From a virus (Duplodnaviria > Heunggongvirae > Uroviricota > Caudoviricetes > Drexlerviridae): a stretch of 4,116 nt of DNA. The DNA lies in IMG/VR virus record IMGVR_UViG_2579778786_000003; one strand, given 5' to 3'. How positions within the stretch are numbered: position 1 is the stretch's first letter; each line of letters begins with the position of its first letter. The translations under genes were made by a program, and so were the position numbers. This document shows, one piece after another, positions 1 to 4,116 of the stretch. Under the pieces are notes generated by a model, which saw nothing but the letters and a program-made list of their open reading frames with translations, was not told the origin of the DNA and made no database searches.

Positions 1-138
1 GCCAATCGCAACCGAGTGCGTATGAGCACCAATACCGACAGTATGTGCGTGTGTACCTGCGCTTGCAGCAGTACCCGATACAGAGTGCGCGTGACGCGGT
101 AAATTTAAAAATCGACAAATATCGTCCAGGAGCGCCAT
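1..138 (-). pseudogene. Orphan fragment encoding a lambda Stf-type C-terminal His-x-His repeat tail fiber domain; 3' end runs off the window start
   Basis: The minus-strand frame with codons 138..136, 135..133 and so on reads MALLDDICRFLNLPRHAHSVSGTAASAGTHAHTVGIGAHTHSVAIG and continues past position 1. The part from about nt 96 down resembles the lambda Stf C-terminal region as I recall it (SHSHSLSGTAVSAGAHAHTVGIGAHQHPVVIG). The frame is open back to a TGA at 207..205, but the only ATG (138) has no convincing SD, so this looks like a remnant rather than an independently expressed gene. Confidence 0.5.
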
Positions 139-205
139 TTTCAATGGCTGGAGATAGCAATCAACATGTGTTGTTTGCAATGTTTGGCGAAATTCACTGA
201 TTTTT

Positions 206-225
206 CATGCCCCACCCATGCCCCA
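206..225. repeat. Tandem direct repeat, 2 x CATGCCCCA separated by CC
   Basis: Plus strand 206..214 CATGCCCCA, 215..216 CC, 217..225 CATGCCCCA. It lies between the gene B stop (266) and the stf C-terminal fragment, next to an AT-rich tract. Confidence 0.6.
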
Positions 226-265
226 AGAGGCCTGCCACGCGAAATCTCCCATCAATTGACAGCAA

Positions 266-583
266 CTAAACAACCGCATTGTCCTGGCGCACATCGCAGA
301 TAGTAAACGTCACGACGCCGATGACATTAACATCGTCCAAGGCCTCGCCCTCGATCGCTTCGCCATCTTCGGTAATCAGCGACTTTCCTCTCAGCGTGGC
401 AAGCTCCGTCCCGCCGCCGTGCTGGATCAGAACCTGACTACCTTGTGATGGCTTCAGGGAGATATCCAGCACAACGTAACCGCCTGAACGCTCGAAGAGG
501 CGCGTATTTGGCCCAACACTGCAGATCGAGTTAACCGTTAATCGCTGTTCCGTGTAGTCCGTCGCCGGTGATGGAAAGCCCAT
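266..583 (-). CDS. Hypothetical acidic protein (105 aa), second gene of the coupled operon
   Basis: ATG at 583..581 is preceded by GGGGAGGA (598..591) with a 7-nt spacer, embedded in the 3' end of the upstream gene. It runs 105 codons to TAG at 268..266. Protein: MGFPSPATDYTEQRLTVNSICSVGPNTRLFERSGGYVVLDISLKPSQGSQVLIQHGGGTELATLRGKSLITEDGEAIEGEALDDVNVIGVVTFTICDVRQDNAVV. Net acidic, no signal peptide or transmembrane segment apparent. The ORF track uses an upstream GTG (616) that would overlap the first gene by 34 nt; ATG 583 is preferred. Confidence 0.65.
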   Translation of the reverse strand: MGFPSPATDYTEQRLTVNSICSVGPNTRLFERSGGYVVLDISLKPSQGSQVLIQHGGGTELATLRGKSLITEDGEAIEGEALDDVNVIGVVTFTICDVRQDNAVV

Positions 584-822
584 TACAGAATCCTCCCCAT
601 GTTGGCCATCATCCACAGGCAGTTTTCACTATGCTCTGCCGTTTTGTCGACGAAATACGTTTGCTCGCGTGCGATCCAGGAGTTCGCCTCCACCTCGGAA
701 AAATGGATGCCGCGCCGGCGCAGCGCGGTAACGAAGTCGCGGGTGTGAAGGTACTGGAACCCCTTGGAACTGCGCAATACCGACTCGCGGAACGCCGCTG
801 CGATGTCTGACTGTCGAAGCAT
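583..822 (-). CDS. Hypothetical small basic protein (79 aa), first gene of a translationally coupled two-gene operon downstream of the tail fiber
   Basis: ATG at 822..820 is preceded by GGGAGGG (835..829) with a 6-nt spacer. It runs 79 codons to TAA at 585..583, which overlaps the ATG of the next gene (TAATG). Protein: MLRQSDIAAAFRESVLRSSKGFQYLHTRDFVTALRRRGIHFSEVEANSWIAREQTYFVDKTAEHSENCLWMMANMGRIL. It is Arg-rich with no hydrophobic segment. The ORF track starts this frame at an upstream TTG (837); the ATG with the SD is preferred. Local GC is about 60-65 percent. Confidence 0.65.
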   Translation of the reverse strand: MLRQSDIAAAFRESVLRSSKGFQYLHTRDFVTALRRRGIHFSEVEANSWIAREQTYFVDKTAEHSENCLWMMANMGRIL

Positions 823-834
823 GATCTGCCCTCC

Positions 835-866
835 CAATAATACTGCACAAACATACAGTATTATTG
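835..866. repeat. Perfect 11-bp inverted repeat (CAATAATACTG, 10-nt spacer, CAGTATTATTG) in the stf to gene A intergenic region, abutting the gene A Shine-Dalgarno
   Basis: Plus strand 835..845 is CAATAATACTG and 856..866 is CAGTATTATTG, which are exact reverse complements. On the minus-strand transcript the 3' arm ends at nt 835, which is also the first G of the SD GGGAGGG. Confidence 0.7.
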
Positions 867-893
867 TTGTGAGGGAAGATCAATGTAGGAGTT

Positions 894-3800
894 TTACATT
901 AACTTCAAAACAGCAGAAACGATCGGCAGCCCACCTCCAGTTGCAGGGTCAGGATGGATTCCATCAGCATTGAACCAGTTGCGTGGAGATGTCGATGCGT
1001 AATCAGATGGCTTGTCTCCGTAGTCAATCTGGAGATTGTGATAAGCCACCCTGTTTAGCGCACAAACATCCCGTACAACAGACGCATACGCCGCCATTGC
1101 CACATTGTTATTCCTCTGGTTTTCACATGGCATGATCACCAGAACATCAGCCAACGGGCATGCAGTGCGAACTGCTGTGATTATCGTCTGAATATCGGCA
1201 GCAAACGCGGATGGATCACGGGATGATGTCTGGTCATTGGTCCCATGCAGAATTGTCACCAGATTGGGGGCCAGCGCGGTGAATGCTGCTTTCCATGTTG
1301 CGCTGGTAACCTGCGCCGCCCATTGTTGAGCAGAACTCCCCGTCGCACCCAGCTTGTGAGACCGGACACCATCTGTCGCGGTCTGCACATCCAGACCGTA
1401 CAGTTCAACGGTTCCTGATACCGGACTGAACCAGATATTGAAAGCTGTTGCCGGTACCGTGAGGCTGACAACCGCAAGGTCAGTGAACGTGCTCAGGTCG
1501 ATAGTTGTCCAGTTAACTCCACCATCTGTGCTGTATTTAACACTCCCCTGAGGTTTAGCAAAAAGGCGGACTGACGATGCATTTGCCGGTATACCGTTCG
1601 CCCTGAAAGTAGCGGTGGTATCAGAAGACGAGACGCTACAAATATCTGCGCTCTGTGCTGCCGCATATGTCGGAGTCCATGTTCCTGTTTTGGTCAAAGT
1701 TATCTGACCAAGTATATTGCCGTTATACTGCCCGAAACCCGCCTCAGACGGATAGCCAAATCCGATATAGCCGATACCTGCACTGCCATAGTCAGCCTGC
1801 ATTTTTCCGGCAAAAATTCCGCTCCATCGGTTCCACAGGTGAGTCCAGCTATCGCCAATGTGCGCTGTTACCAGTGTTGCTGACTGAGAAAGCCGCCTGT
1901 TCATCAGGCGCTTATGTGTCTCTCTGAGTGAATCCTGATTTAACGTGAATGCTCTGGAAGTTGTGTAATCGACATCCTGTCGGTACGTATCATCACTCAG
2001 TACAGGAGAGCCATTCCCAACAAAGAGCCCCCTGGCAACAACATAAACACCTGCAGCGCCAACAGTCTGCCCATTCATAAGGCGGATTTGCAGATATCCA
2101 GCCGTATCAACAATAGTCTGGGTGATAGCTATTGTGCGAACCAGAGTCTGATATTGCTGGGTTGGGAACTGGAACAACTGAGACGAACTGTCACTAATAA
2201 CAGTCCCGCTAGCCGTCCGGAAATATGCTGCCACGTTGATTGCCTGAGACGATACCACACCCAGCGCTACTGTCAGCGAATCTCCAGCACGCAGTCCAAG
2301 CCGCTTTGCTGAAATGTTAATATCCGTCTGACCACCACCTACTGGGATAATCAGAGATTTTTTCCTAAGAAACGGGCTGCCAGAATAATCCGCAACATAT
2401 GCTGGTAGTGAAACCCCTGCTACTTGAGCAGGACCCCAACCATCAATACACGTTTCCCCGCACTCGTAGCGGCGATACCAGGGATCAGGCCACAGGTTAA
2501 TCTGCTGGCGCTGGTATCCTGAATACTCTGCTGGAAGGCTACCGTAAATAAACTCAGGGCGAGATCGTCCGAAAGCTACACCTATGGCAACCAGCTCCTT
2601 GACCATAGCCCCTGATGCGCGAAGCGTAAGGTATGTCGTTGATGCTGGTATTGTCAGCGTGGTACTTCCATCATTAAAGCCGGATGCTGATGCGGCAATA
2701 GTTGCCGAAGAAAGTACTCCGGATGCATTACGACAGAAAACCTGAAACGTGCCACCCGTTGACGCGAACCATGCAGCCAGACGGACAGTGATTGTGTCTC
2801 CCGGCTTAACCCCCATCGAACTGAGAGAAATAATACGATCAGCACCAACTCCTGACGTGTTTTGGATCCCGGTCTTACCCCATGGTGAATTTGCGCTGTT
2901 CTGAATCAATGTTCCTGCGTAACTCATGGCGTCAACCACGCCTGCAGGAAGTCCTTGCTTAGGACGAACGGAAAGCATCTCGCCAAAAGGGTCGTACACG
3001 AGGTTATCAGGGGTACCCAATGCCTCCTGGTACGCTTTTGAAGGGAAAGACCTTGTGAATTCAGGAGTAACATCACCAATAGCTGCGGCATAGACACCGA
3101 TTTTGAACGCCCCTGACACAGTGTTTTGCACCCGAATTCGTATGGATGATGCGCCAGATGGCACAGCAATGACCACAACCGGAGAGGATATACCAGCAAC
3201 CAGTGGAGAGGCCTCCCCTGTAGTGATGGTTACTCCTGCTGAATCAAGCCAATAAATCTGTAACTTGCCTCCAGCGTTCTCGAACCATACCAAAACAGAG
3301 AAAGCTAAAGTGTCTCCTGGTTTTATCTGTAATTTTGACACATCGTAATATTTATCAAACGATGTTACACCAGAAGCTTGAATAACAGGTGTTGGAAGCG
3401 GCAAATTAACATCAGTAGTAGAAAATGTTGGCGTAGCGCCTTTATACCAATCCCAGTTAGCGAATGTTAAAAGGCTTGAGGAATATTCATTAAATGCGTC
3501 GAATAAAATGTTGCCTCTACGCAAAGCGGAATACGCTGGAATTTTTCTTCCGGTTGCTACCAACGTACCAGCGGTATTGATAACCTCAATTGAAAGATTA
3601 TTGTCATCTGAGCTGCGATAATAAGCAGTTGATCCCACCGGTATATTACCCGCAGCTGCGTCTGCCTGCGCCGCAGCCAGCGTCGGAAACTCGCGGATTG
3701 TCCCTGTTATGGCTGCCGTGCCTGGCTGCTTTGCCTGCAATACGGCCACGCCAGCATTGTTTTGATACTGCCATGCAGCAGAAAGCGCATCTGGCCCCTG

Positions 3801-4116
3801 AGCTACCCAGAACGACTGGCCGTCAGTAGTTGCTGCCAACCCTGCAATGGTGCCATCAGGATCGCTGGCAGTCTTATAGAACGTGAACTTATTCTGTGCG
3901 TAGTCAGAAGCGTTATTTGCATACTCTTCAGCCTGTGCTGCTGAACCTGCGGCTGCCGTTGCCGATTCGGATGAGGCTGCTGTGTTCTGCGCCACTGCGG
4001 ACGCGTTACGCGCCACCTCTTCCACCATCAGTTCAAAACGGCGCAGTGCCTCCGGACGGGCATCATCCTCCGTCATGGCACCGAGAAAATCATTCAGCGT
4101 ACCGGGTCGGGAATCT
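894..4116 (-). CDS. stf: Side tail fiber protein, 5'-partial (start outside window): lambda Stf-like N-terminal segment, three tandem beta-rich modules, C-terminal SGNH/GDSL hydrolase (putative polysaccharide esterase/deacetylase) domain
   Basis: One uninterrupted minus-strand frame from the window end to TAA at 896..894. The frame stays open upstream of the ORF-track Met at 4076: in-frame codons 4115..4077 read DSRPGTLNDFLGA, so the ATG at 4076 is an internal Met. The segment DSRPGTLNDFLGAMTEDDARPEALRRFELMVEEVARNAS matches my recollection of lambda Stf (...PGTLNDFLCAMTEDDARPEVLRRLELMVEEVARNAS...). The C-terminal ~320 aa carry the SGNH signature blocks (see separate feature). Confidence 0.9.
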   Translation of the reverse strand, partial: DSRPGTLNDFLGAMTEDDARPEALRRFELMVEEVARNASAVAQNTAASSESATAAAGSAAQAEEYANNASDYAQNKFTFYKTASDPDGTIAGLAATTDGQSFWVAQGPDALSAAWQYQNNAGVAVLQAKQPGTAAITGTIREFPTLAAAQADAAAGNIPVGSTAYYRSSDDNNLSIEVINTAGTLVATGRKIPAYSALRRGNILFDAFNEYSSSLLTFANWDWYKGATPTFSTTDVNLPLPTPVIQASGVTSFDKYYDVSKLQIKPGDTLAFSVLVWFENAGGKLQIYWLDSAGVTITTGEASPLVAGISSPVVVIAVPSGASSIRIRVQNTVSGAFKIGVYAAAIGDVTPEFTRSFPSKAYQEALGTPDNLVYDPFGEMLSVRPKQGLPAGVVDAMSYAGTLIQNSANSPWGKTGIQNTSGVGADRIISLSSMGVKPGDTITVRLAAWFASTGGTFQVFCRNASGVLSSATIAASASGFNDGSTTLTIPASTTYLTLRASGAMVKELVAIGVAFGRSRPEFIYGSLPAEYSGYQRQQINLWPDPWYRRYECGETCIDGWGPAQVAGVSLPAYVADYSGSPFLRKKSLIIPVGGGQTDINISAKRLGLRAGDSLTVALGVVSSQAINVAAYFRTASGTVISDSSSQLFQFPTQQYQTLVRTIAITQTIVDTAGYLQIRLMNGQTVGAAGVYVVARGLFVGNGSPVLSDDTYRQDVDYTTSRAFTLNQDSLRETHKRLMNRRLSQSATLVTAHIGDSWTHLWNRWSGIFAGKMQADYGSAGIGYIGFGYPSEAGFGQYNGNILGQITLTKTGTWTPTYAAAQSADICSVSSSDTTATFRANGIPANASSVRLFAKPQGSVKYSTDGGVNWTTIDLSTFTDLAVVSLTVPATAFNIWFSPVSGTVELYGLDVQTATDGVRSHKLGATGSSAQQWAAQVTSATWKAAFTALAPNLVTILHGTNDQTSSRDPSAFAADIQTIITAVRTACPLADVLVIMPCENQRNNNVAMAAYASVVRDVCALNRVAYHNLQIDYGDKPSDYASTSPRNWFNADGIHPDPATGGGLPIVSAVLKLM
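897..1862 (-). other. SGNH/GDSL hydrolase catalytic domain inside the tail fiber CDS
   Basis: Block I HIGDSWTH with the nucleophile Ser codon at 1850..1848 (GDS = 1856..1848). Block III LHGTNDQ (GTND = 1244..1233). Block V NADGIHP (DGIHP = 965..951) a few residues from the C-terminus. The order Ser, Asn, then Asp-x-x-His is canonical for SGNH esterases. All codons were checked by hand against the sequence. Confidence 0.8.
2007..3371 (-). other. Three tandem, diverged ~115-130 aa beta-rich repeat modules within the tail fiber (putative carbohydrate-binding modules)
   Basis: The repeated protein pattern is visible by eye. Module 1 (about nt 3371..3027): VSKLQIKPGDTLAFSVLVWFENAGGKLQIYWLDSAGV ... 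IGDVTPEFTRSFPSKAY. Module 2 (about 2864..2517): LSSMGVKPGDTITVRLAAWFASTGGTFQVFCRNASGV ... FGRSRPEFIYGSLPAEY. Module 3 (about 2354..2007) is weaker: LGLRAGDSLTVALGVV ... AAYFRTASGTV. Boundaries are approximate. Confidence 0.55.

Follow-up and report, generated by a model that had tools for sequence, protein, structure and literature searches.

A patchwork side tail fibre locus in a lambda-like prophage of Escherichia coli, with one joint inside a phage attachment-site core

Genes and features of the locus

The DNA analyzed here, called the window, comprises 4,116 nt and is the reverse complement of positions 1732532-1736647 of the E. coli CFS3313 chromosome. It belongs to a lambda-like prophage (L001) that contains J, lom, stf, and tfa and adjoins tRNA-Pro. 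The features of the window are listed in Table 1. A single continuous fibre open reading frame (ORF; L001 11759-15223) encodes a protein of 1,152 aa, which carries both the Stf N-terminal and the SGNH Pfam domain. The fibre gene starts at L001 11765, 236 nt past the window end, its frame is open as far as window 4116, and its stop codon lies at 894-896. Two further genes and a spacer follow before a short Stf-like frame at the left end, an order that the first-pass annotation had already recognized.

Table 1. Features of the window in the direction of fibre transcription
Feature	Position (nt)	Strand	Basis
End of lambda/Rac-type Stf N-terminal (tail-attachment) domain, coding	3975..4116	-	Pfam PF08400 and DNA identity
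Left joint, 6-nt microhomology GCAGCC	3975..3980	-	Aligned junction sequences
Conserved proximal shaft of non-Stf fibre	3601..3974	-	GC ~0.56; common to fibres that differ in N-terminus and distal part
Distal receptor-binding part ending in SGNH/GDSL esterase domain (predicted)	894..3600	-	Pfam and PHROG
LexA-box-like operator TACTGTATGTTTGTGCAGTA	841..860	-	Pattern search, inverted repeat, conservation
Gene for 79-aa protein	583..822	-	Model: small four-helix protein
Gene for 105-aa UmuD'-like protein	266..583	-	UmuD'-like start, S24/LexA-C-terminal-domain fold
P arm of attP/attR of yecE-integrating phages ("AT-rich spacer")	94..265	-	Position in relatives
First 5 nt (CACGC) of 21-bp att core CACGCAGTTAAAGTGGCGGGC	89..93	-	Core from attL, attR, attP, attB
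Orphan stf 3' end (HxH repeats)	1..88	-	95-97% identity to intact stfR/stfQ 3' ends and tfa; Pfam, PHROG

The N-terminal part of the fibre was confirmed as the conserved lambda Stf segment. Residues 1-40, counted from the ATG at 4076, matched positions 93-132 of 134 of PF08400 (Prophage tail fibre N-terminal; E 5e-11). DNA identity to lambda stf was 88.6%, ending at window 3977, and to the intact loci Rac stfR, Qin-type stf, and L013 it was 96-98% up to window 3975. The adjoining shaft matches phrog_19652, phrog_31000, and phrog_14987 and is shared with PDP110P1 (window 3980-3537), MEI008 (from 3957), L002 (to 3604), L007 (to 3643), and L018 (3956-3641). The distal part matches the tail fibre protein phrog_38670 (1886 bits) and also occurs in the myovirus-type prophage L016 (window 3684-812, 97.7%); in the non-lambda prophage L004, fibre body and downstream operon are found together at 97.8%. 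The match to Pfam Lipase_GDSL_2 (5.6e-14) exceeded the curated cutoff, and the catalytic motifs GDSW, GTND, and DGIHP (GDS / GxND / DxxH) are in place, the SGNH domain being an intact-looking, predicted esterase. The GC contents reported in the first-pass annotation were reproduced, with 0.38 for 101-200, 0.392 for 3241-3600, where the distal part opens, 0.65 for both 3661-3720 and 3961-4020, and 0.518 for the SGNH part (894-1700). The fibre body is itself mosaic, with a further joint near window 3600-3684; the fall in GC there agrees with the earlier proposal of modules from different sources.

The LexA-box-like operator is located 19 nt upstream of the gene for the 79-aa protein and lies within a perfect inverted repeat of 11 bp (835-866); the pattern search had a chance expectation of 0.04 matches. 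The box is kept in six loci, three of which (L008, RothC, and PDP110P1) have ACTACTGTATATAA, and that of L008 is the full umuD core TACTGTATATAAAAACAGTA, as judged from the E. coli umuD operator sequence (PMC3009722). The stop codon of the 79-aa gene overlaps the start of the next gene (TAATG). The second product begins with MGFPSPATDY and resembles self-cleaved UmuD'; it has the S24/LexA-C-terminal-domain fold without the catalytic Ser and Lys, and a Pfam search with it gave no Peptidase_S24 match. Phage P1 encodes HumD, a pre-processed UmuD' homologue. The 105-aa protein shares with UmuD' and HumD the start at the UmuD' N-terminus (GFPSPA-DY-EQR) and the S24 fold, but differs from them in its length, in the deletion of the Ser60 segment, and in having no Lys97 equivalent. 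In relatives, the operator has exactly the sequence of the LexA-controlled one at umuD in E. coli, whereas an unrelated 79-aa gene precedes the UmuD'-like gene and a umuC partner is missing. The operon is predicted to be under SOS control and would be switched on by DNA damage.

The orphaned stf end, the spacer, and the two joints

Window 1-93 matches, on the minus strand, the Pfam family Phage_fiber (HxH repeat) and positions 739-794 of 794 of the tail fibre protein phrog_295, and stf homology begins at window 87-93 in thousands of intact E. coli stf genes. In stfR, Qin-type stf, and L013, identity is 95-97% from window 89-75 on through tfa. The frame extends 93 nt past the window to L001 16209, where it meets an intact tfa (L001 16209-16793), in line with the expectation that the Stf C-terminus and tfa would continue beyond position 1. 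An ATG at 138, in a frame open from a stop at about 207, would allow this end to be read as a separate small gene or as the 5' end of another fibre gene. The remnant does match residues 22-82 of the 82-aa phrog_36248, similar small phage ORFs are called by gene callers, and the stop of the ORF overlaps the tfa start, as in intact stf-tfa. However, the ATG and the next 15 codons, all upstream of 89, consist of attachment-site P-arm DNA, not fibre DNA, which in other phages adjoins yecE or int, and the ATG has no Shine-Dalgarno motif; the first-pass annotation had seen no adequate start here. Only 61 codons are fibre derived, compared with 970-1,120 aa in intact Stf, PGAP annotates the frame as a pseudogene without N-terminus, and in L002 an IS1 parts the orphan from tfaQ. 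We consider a separate gene very improbable. The left end is an orphan of 61 stf-derived codons followed by an intact tfa.

The spacer that had been described as AT-rich does have a low GC content, and its identity can now be refined. It runs to the host yecE junction in the prophages L008, L009, and L017, in which operon and spacer form the terminal segment, and it directly precedes int in phage RothC. The spacer is hence the P arm of the attP of yecE phages, and the two genes are the usual right-end unit of this donor phage type, situated between the receptor-binding genes and att and having their own LexA box. Within the P arm, TGGGGCATG occurs twice in direct orientation (window 206-225), and the two copies are candidate integrase sites of the arm type. 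The exact 9-mer CATGCCCCA is repeated at 206-214 and 217-225 (11-nt spacing), just outside the range 101-200 in which a 9-bp tandem repeat had been placed; inside that range, TRF found none, and only an imperfect pair, CAAACATTG/CAAACAACA at 169-186, could be seen by eye.

The 21-bp core is common to attL, attR, attP, and attB. L001 becomes stf after CACGC, which puts the right joint between window 89 and 88. Phage records divide at this point, with Klebsiella phages to the left, matching the P-arm side only, and Escherichia stf genes to the right; no phage record spanning the right joint was found. At the left joint, located at codon 126 of the fibre, GCAGCC is common to the stf-type and PDP110P1-type parents. 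No donor was found that combines a Stf N-terminus of lambda type with an att of the yecE type, and the left joint therefore cannot be ascribed to long homology. The breakpoints are within ~10-25 nt of those predicted earlier (96-100 and 3950-3990), and the short homology sought at the junctions amounts to 6 nt at the left joint and a 1-nt exact overlap at the right one.

Replacement of the stf middle and proposed origin

The foreign segment, window 89-3974, comprises 3,886 bp and takes the place of 2.5-2.8 kb of the stf body. The first-pass proposal that roughly 3.8 kb recombined into stf and orphaned its 3' end thus holds for the foreign segment and the orphan, but the event is a replacement rather than a pure insertion. 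Both flanks, J-lom-stfN and stf 3'-tfa, trace to one collinear intact J-lom-stf-tfa family at 95-98% identity, and lambda stf gives the same two-flank pattern; the most economical interpretation is therefore an exchange of the stf middle for foreign DNA. We conclude, with a probability of roughly 0.85, that this patchwork locus is a recombinant of two phage genomes in which right-end DNA of another phage has taken the place of the middle of stf. Topologically, a hybrid that joins circular genomes at two points can be read both ways, and the integration end downstream of the right joint in L001 is a different one (tRNA-Pro). A resident phage with SGNH fibre, operon, and yecE-type att could accordingly have picked up, on its downstream side, the 3' end of stf together with tfa and a new integration module and, separately, a lambda-type J-lom-stfN upstream. 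We regard this direction as unlikely, as it needs two independent acquisitions versus one donor segment under replacement, both flanks come from one collinear family, and the other L001 tail genes are lambda-like.

Under replacement, the recipient would have been a late region of the lambda/Rac/Qin type with J, lom, stf, and tfa. One contiguous right-end piece (window 3974 to 89) would have come from the donor, with shaft, receptor-binding part with SGNH esterase, LexA-controlled two-gene operon, and attP P arm. At the left joint, the Stf tail-attachment domain is fused in frame to the foreign shaft at the 6-nt microhomology, giving one predicted functional side tail fibre. Beyond the right joint, 5 nt into the donor att core, the old stf tip and a partnerless intact tfa are left as relics. 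This joint may have arisen when the donor integrase used stf as a weak secondary target, or when the DNA broke at the att core. Recombination through fibre or late genes of the same orientation could then have removed the remaining donor DNA.

That an integrase took part in forming the right joint is a tentative proposal, at or just under even odds. The break lies inside the 21-bp core, 5 nt from its edge, and within the 9 nt that separate the imperfect inverted repeats CCGCGTCAC and GTGGCGGGC; had it been free to fall within a few kb downstream of the fibre, the odds of hitting the core would be below ~1%. The orientation is exactly attR-like (P arm, core, target), and the donor fibre is co-directional with stf. 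These points speak against a chance illegitimate event (microhomology or end joining) in the att core without integrase, which would yield the same structure and which we rate a little short of an even chance. In its favor, the exact overlap is 1 nt only (imperfect TCAnnC), and microhomology plainly accounts for the left joint. At the right joint, stf is a poor match to the core, with 9 of 21 positions alike (top 6.4% of stf-tfa positions, not significant) and no agreement at any of the 7 central AT-rich positions. The predicted reciprocal joint, consisting of the stf left part, the rest of the core, and the P' arm, did not occur in any of the 5,426 complete E. coli genomes. The lack of a donor combining both features, mentioned above, likewise counts against integrase involvement.

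Spread of the hybrid and comparison with known systems

The whole window was present at ≥99% identity in 13 independent complete E. coli genomes, and the arrangement is therefore not an assembly accident. In a 14th genome (H14, MEI008), 88% of the window was found at 98.1% in a non-lambda prophage. The right joint was detected in 17 of the 5,426 genomes. Both joints recur in lambdoid prophages at other chromosomal sites and with other fibre bodies, the right joint being identical in L002 and L007, which suggests that the hybrid is old and that receptor-binding parts were exchanged later. In such swaps, the conserved shaft and the two-gene operon could have served as flanking homologies.

Like lambda stf-tfa, Rac stfR-tfaR, and Qin stfQ-tfaQ, the locus follows J and lom, starts with the PF08400 domain, and has the same last 61 stf codons and tfa (94-98% DNA identity). 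It departs from them in that foreign DNA has displaced ~2.5-2.8 kb of the stf body, with almost the whole Tfa-dependent tip; the fibre that is expressed terminates in a predicted SGNH esterase, and the Stf tip is an untranslatable-looking relic. Helper-embedded PICIs are satellites whose integrase puts them into late genes of prophages (PMC10111431); stf was not among the terms found in that paper. In contrast to these satellites, the insert contains no integrase, AlpA, primase, or second att site, and no att core occurs elsewhere in L001. The insert is a fixed, non-excisable scar and not a mobile satellite.

Known SGNH-esterase receptor-binding proteins are gp63.1 of phage G7C and SGNH tail fibres of Klebsiella prophages (PMC13123978). 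The L001 fibre resembles them in its C-terminal SGNH hydrolase domain with seemingly intact catalytic motifs, but it belongs to an E. coli prophage, and its predicted esterase part is joined to the N-terminal domain of a lambda Stf. Going by its family, the fibre probably dispenses with the Stf/Tfa tip and recognizes a surface polysaccharide, which it deacetylates; tfa, intact in L001 and L007, may have a residual function.

In classical tail fibre mosaicism, segments are exchanged among unrelated phages (P2 H, Mu S, P1 S, lambda stf, T4 gp37). The present locus agrees with this in its in-frame joints at domain boundaries and in the occurrence of one distal part on siphovirus-type and myovirus-type tails (L001, L004, L016), but its foreign piece extends to genes other than fibre genes and to an att arm, and the orphan left behind is precisely mappable. 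The locus thus represents ordinary phage mosaicism, except that one of its joints lies inside the core of an integration site.

Source and boundaries of the hybrid stf locus

The window was found to be the reverse complement of nucleotides 1732532-1736647 of the Escherichia coli CFS3313 chromosome (NZ_CP026939.2; 100% identity). It is present at 100% identity in four further complete genomes, and the whole window occurs at at least 99% identity in 13 independent complete genomes, which rules out an assembly artefact. In a 14th genome, MEI008, a non-lambda prophage covers 88% of the window at 98.1% identity. The window and its surroundings (L001, 28 kb; window position = 16117 - L001 position) represent a lambda-like prophage adjoining tRNA-Pro and yejM, in which tail genes, J, lom, the fibre gene, two small genes, a short pseudogene, tfa, three accessory genes, and the prophage end follow each other, with all genes of interest on the minus strand of the window. 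The segment from tfa to the prophage end at tRNA-Pro (L001 16897-19626) carries a DUF2971 gene, a DUF4236 gene, and a frameshifted dinI-like gene; two lambdoid prophages, L002 and L007, have an intact dinI-like gene at the corresponding prophage end position. Literature searches returned no paper on this locus, on the two-gene unit, or on integration into stf.

We aligned L001 with three intact loci, namely, the Rac stfR of K-12 (L010), a Qin-type stf (L011), and a third intact stf locus (L013). All three matched with 96-98% identity up to L001 12142 (window 3975), and the match resumed at L001 16028-16042 (window 89-75) and continued with 95-97% identity through tfa. The same pattern was obtained with lambda stf, and among 4,121 E. 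coli records, the intact stf homology begins at window 87-93. The breakpoints predicted by the first-pass annotation, 96-100 and 3950-3990, were thus essentially right, and the L001 gene map bore out its expectation that the sequence past window position 1 leads into the Stf C-terminus and then tfa. Recomputation reproduced its GC figures exactly, and the GC steps behind the heterogeneous composition that it had reported inside the fibre gene coincide with real mosaic joints. The 3,886 bp of window 89-3974 stand in place of the 2.5-2.8 kb stf body of the intact loci, indicating that the event was a replacement and not a pure insertion. The features located within and around this segment are listed in the table.

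Features of the hybrid locus and of related loci
Feature	Position	Strand	Description
Conserved shaft	window 3974 to ~3600	minus	common to the fibres of L002, L003, L004, L007, and L018, which have varied N-termini and distal parts
Specific distal fibre part	window ~3684-3600 to 894	minus	low-GC start, SGNH/GDSL end
LexA-box-like operator TACTGTATGTTTGTGCAGTA	window 841-860		exact pattern match; 11-bp perfect inverted repeat at 835-866
9-mer TGGGGCATG	window 206-225; L006 6628 and 6835; L015 6124; L008 6620 and 6631		candidate arm-type integrase sites

Left joint and chimeric fibre

The reading frame of the fibre stays open as far as window 4116 and in L001 forms one continuous ORF (11759-15223), encoding 1,152 amino acids from the ATG at 11765. 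Its DNA for the N-terminal part is 96-98% identical to stfR and Qin-type stf. As in lambda-type Stf, the fibre is encoded directly after J and lom, and its N-terminus, previously recognized as Stf-like from the sequence alone, matched PF08400 ('Prophage tail fibre N-terminal') with an E value of 5e-11 (43.1 bits; cutoff, 26.6). The difference from lambda-type Stf lies at the other end: the HxH tip, which lambda-type Stf carries in its own polypeptide and which is assembled with Tfa, is absent from the window fibre, whose ORF stops at window 894.

The left joint, between the stf N-terminus and the foreign shaft, is in frame at codon 126, directly past the Pfam N-terminal domain and in an Ala/Ser-rich stretch. 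The hexanucleotide GCAGCC at window 3980-3975 is common to stf-type sequences, L001, and the fibre gene of Lambdavirus PDP110P1 (L003), with divergence on opposite sides, and no att sequence was present in the junction alignment. The left joint is thus one of microhomology, placed at a domain boundary. The distal fibre part recurs with 97.7% identity in a myovirus-type prophage at tRNA-Arg (L016), and a non-lambda prophage (L004) carries the whole fibre body together with the two small genes at 97.8%. A first impression of three tandem carbohydrate-binding repeats in the fibre was dropped, as self-BLASTP revealed no internal repeats. In the coding region of the conserved shaft, TRF reported 2.2 copies of the 13-nt unit TGGCTGCCGTGCC (86% matches; window 3710-3737), which in this Ala-rich stretch is likely to be mere coding-sequence repetition.

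The C-terminal part of the fibre scored above the Pfam curated thresholds for PF13472 (53.5 bits; cutoff, 32.9) and PF00657 (32.2 bits; cutoff, 23.6). The SGNH catalytic blocks I, III, and V (GDS, GxND, and DxxH) are present as GDSW at 833, GTND at 1037, and DGIHP at 1130. By profile and motifs, the fibre tip is a predicted SGNH/GDSL esterase. Among the receptor-binding proteins of temperate Klebsiella phages, fibres with an SGNH tip form a common, documented class; esterase activity has been demonstrated for two of them, and gp63.1 of phage G7C is an O-antigen deacetylase (PMC13123978).

PGAP divides the fibre ORF into a 'pseudogene' for the N-terminal part (L001 11765-12215) and an SGNH gene of its own that starts at L001 12776. 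As the ORF is uninterrupted, this split is an annotation artefact. The fibres of L002, L004, and L016 are split alike, and a systematic mis-annotation of chimeric fibres is likely.

Attachment-site arm and two-gene unit of the donor

In three prophages at yecE (L008, L009, and L017), the two-gene unit and the AT-rich spacer extend exactly to window 89 and are followed by host yecE; in the phage RothC, the spacer sequence lies immediately before the integrase gene. Window 89-265 is 88-94% identical to prophage ends at yecE. A 21-bp core, CACGCAGTTAAAGTGGCGGGC, is common to attL and attR of a complete yecE-type prophage (L015), attP of RothC, and attB of an uninterrupted yecE (L012), and the arms around this core swap among the four site types as site-specific integration predicts. 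The adjacency to yecE or int and the shared core with its swapping arms indicate that the spacer is the P arm of attP of yecE-integrating phages. Such phages integrate 91 nt into yecE, so that the gene is truncated and not restored.

The first-pass annotation had assigned to the spacer a GC content, which was confirmed, and a 9-bp tandem repeat within window 101-200, the sole detail that failed, as TRF (minimum score, 30) found none there. According to the repeat search, the nearest real repeat consists of two copies of CATGCCCCA, with an exact 9-mer at window 206-214 and 217-225. The reported repeat was probably this P-arm 9-mer, TGGGGCATG, half-seen. The P arm of the yecE-type attP has two copies of this 9-mer and the P′ arm has one, as would be expected of arm-type integrase sites, for which the copies are candidates.

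At the right joint, the full 21-bp core is missing and its first 5 nt alone remain. No second att core or P′ arm was found within 3 mismatches across the 28 kb of L001, and the gene map contains no integrase gene adjacent to the P arm. What the window carries of the att sequence is a scar and not a working site. A 51-aa ORF on the plus strand (window 45-200) runs across the att/stf joint in the frame that corresponds to yecE reading into the phage arm in genuine yecE lysogens; it is without meaning at this locus.

The first gene of the two-gene unit encodes a 79-aa protein of phrog_3893, a family of unknown function with 307 homologues, all from Enterobacteriaceae. Its predicted structure is a small four-helix model, the helix-turn-helix-like structural neighbours of which are weak ones only. 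Some homologue entries (P0011, P0051, P0090, and P0116) comprise 93-124 aa, with N-terminal extensions containing PF00239 and PF02796 (resolvase/invertase), and bear names such as 'recombinase family protein' or 'putative invertase'; these ORFs probably run on from an invertase remnant lying upstream. A GC-rich hairpin with a T-run within the coding sequence of the 79-aa protein (window 709-728, minus strand) was flagged as terminator-like by the scan. It is probably due to chance, because shuffled sequences give a number of such sites (mean, 1.0; sd, 1.1) similar to the 2 found.

The two genes (window 266-822, minus strand) are translationally coupled, the start of the second overlapping the end of the first in TAATG. 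The 105-aa product of the second gene begins with MGFPSPATDY, which corresponds to the N-terminus of UmuD after self-cleavage. The protein shows the beta fold of the LexA/CI C-terminal domain and UmuD′ as well as the UmuD′ N-terminal arm. UmuD has the catalytic dyad Ser60/Lys97. This Ser-Lys dyad is absent from the 105-aa protein: in an HMMER alignment to PDB UmuD, Ser60 aligns with Tyr36, and in a MAFFT alignment with UmuD, the 12-residue segment ASGDSMIDGGIS is deleted and no Lys stands opposite Lys97. The protein also gave no Pfam Peptidase_S24 match. The pair resembles a protein whose DNA-binding and oligomerisation parts have been placed on separate chains.

A LexA-box pattern search, for which 0.04 matches are expected by chance, identified the operator listed in the table, a CTG-N10-CAG box with TA flanks located 19 nt upstream of the 79-aa gene. 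The box is kept in 6 loci, with ACTACTGTATATAA in three of them (L008, RothC, and PDP110P1). The L008 box, ACTACTGTATATAAAAACAGTAT, includes the full umuD core TACTGTATATAAAAACAGTA and does not differ from the umuD operator that PMC3009722 lists for E. coli; those of RothC and PDP110P1 are close variants. By this box, the two-gene unit is predicted to be SOS-controlled from a putative LexA-repressed promoter. A sigma-70 promoter scan of window 1-1000 returned no site by its rule; by our own reading, TTGATC-17-TACTGT, which overlaps the LexA box, is a possible promoter.

A defence-system reading of the unit was dropped, as PADLOC-DB gave no match at E 0.1 or better for the fibre, the 79-aa protein, or the 105-aa protein. 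In E. coli, 146 of the 5,426 genomes contain the unit, which many Klebsiella phages also carry. In every context examined (L004, L006, L008, L009, L017, and L018), it lies after the receptor-binding genes and before att/int, and it is therefore the usual accessory unit at the right end of donor-type phages and not separately acquired cargo. The comparisons show a recipient J-lom-stf-tfa locus, the right end of a donor, and two joints. Satellite integration into prophage late genes is a known phenomenon (PMC10111431), and in a helper-embedded PICI, the genes for an integrase, AlpA, and a primase lie between attL and attR within such a late gene. The window insert differs in that it is without these genes and without a second att and consists only of the fibre body, the two small genes, and the P arm.

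Right joint and later history of the hybrid

The right joint was detected in 17 of the 5,426 genomes. In L001, ...ttaccgcgtCACGC passes directly into GCACTCTGTATCGGG; in the phage att, ...ttaccgcgtCACGC is followed by AGTTAAAGTGGCGGGC, and in intact stf, GCACTCTGTATCGGG is preceded by ...ggcgctcatac. At the joint position, the stf 3′-end sequence reads GCTCATAC/GCACTCTGTATCGGG, and the switch to stf comes 5 nt into the att core, after CACGC. According to our reading of the alignment, two imperfect inverted repeats, CCGCGTCAC and GTGGCGGGC, are 9 nt apart in the core, and the joint lies between them. Its orientation is that of attR. The phage collection holds no record across the joint; Klebsiella phages match on the left only and Escherichia stf genes on the right only.

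Because the right joint falls inside the att core, a role of the integrase is suggested, and we put the chance that the donor integrase made or initiated this joint slightly below even. Chance illegitimate joining, which we rate at a similar level, is at odds with the breakpoint position inside the core and draws its support from the poor resemblance of the stf target and from the missing reciprocal joint. When stf-tfa of the three intact loci was scanned with the core, the joint position matched at 9/21 (top 6.4%) and the central AT-rich part was without a match. Better matches (12-14/21) occur elsewhere in stf-tfa, and sequence similarity gives no support for a secondary att site. A synthetic query for the reciprocal joint, composed of the stf left part, the rest of the core, and the P′ arm, found it in 0 of the 5,426 genomes, in which all P′ arm matches are located at yecE.

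A further-reaching reading, to which we give a probability of about 0.4, sees in the right joint the trace of an integrase-driven event in the stf of a resident prophage. A yecE-integrating temperate phage would have inserted at a poor secondary site in the HxH-repeat end of stf; alternatively, an incoming att core would have been cut and mis-joined there. Recombination between the two co-directional fibre/late regions would then have deleted the rest of the incomer, and the resident phage would have gained a new receptor-binding fibre and an SOS-controlled operon in one step.

The lambdoid prophages L002 and L007, which are located at other chromosomal sites (prfC in the case of L007), have a right joint identical to that of L001 over 160 nt as well as the stfN-shaft fusion, and their distal fibre parts differ from that of L001. 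The presence of common joints despite other distal parts indicates that the hybrid is older than the present receptor-binding part. The flanking homology for later swaps of this part may have come from the conserved shaft on one side and the two-gene unit on the other. In L002, most of the two-gene unit is gone: what is left of the 79-aa gene is 67 nt, and of the UmuD′-like gene the last 50 nt. An inserted IS1A element (L002 5861-6558) separates the orphan stf end from tfaQ, which fits a relic status of the stf tip and tfa.

The HxH tip forms a separate relic (window 1-93 and beyond) located 800 nt downstream of the fibre and behind the two genes. Its earlier assignment to the Stf C-terminal domain was supported by matches to the Pfam 'Phage_fiber' repeat and to the last 56 positions of phrog_295, a family of tail fibre proteins. 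The possibility that the orphan is a gene of its own was rejected: the ATG at 138 and the first 15 codons are P-arm DNA, no Shine-Dalgarno motif is present ahead of this ATG, and the fibre-derived codons number only 61. The stf remnant is also matched by phrog_36248 (82-aa proteins), which shows gene callers naming similar leftovers and not a function.

Mosaic tail fibres, fibres with SGNH tips, and orphaned gene ends are all already known, and the added interest, which is modest, lies in the att-core joint and the UmuD′-like unit with its putative SOS box. The locus is a clean, nucleotide-resolved case of a temperate phage changing its receptor-binding equipment, in which a lambda-type attachment domain is fused to a fibre with a predicted esterase tip that is also found on myovirus-type tails. 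Since PGAP splits the fibre into a 'pseudogene' and a hydrolase gene, host-range predictions based on its annotation would miss a probably functional 1,152-aa fibre. The pair behind the putative SOS box, the 79-aa protein and a catalytically dead UmuD′-like protein, occurs widely among prophages of Klebsiella and E. coli and merits its own study. The position of the right joint in the att core hints that integrases may aid module shuffling between prophages. If true and general, the action of site-specific integrases on resident prophages would be a further route, besides homologous and microhomology recombination, by which host-range modules are exchanged between unrelated tail types.
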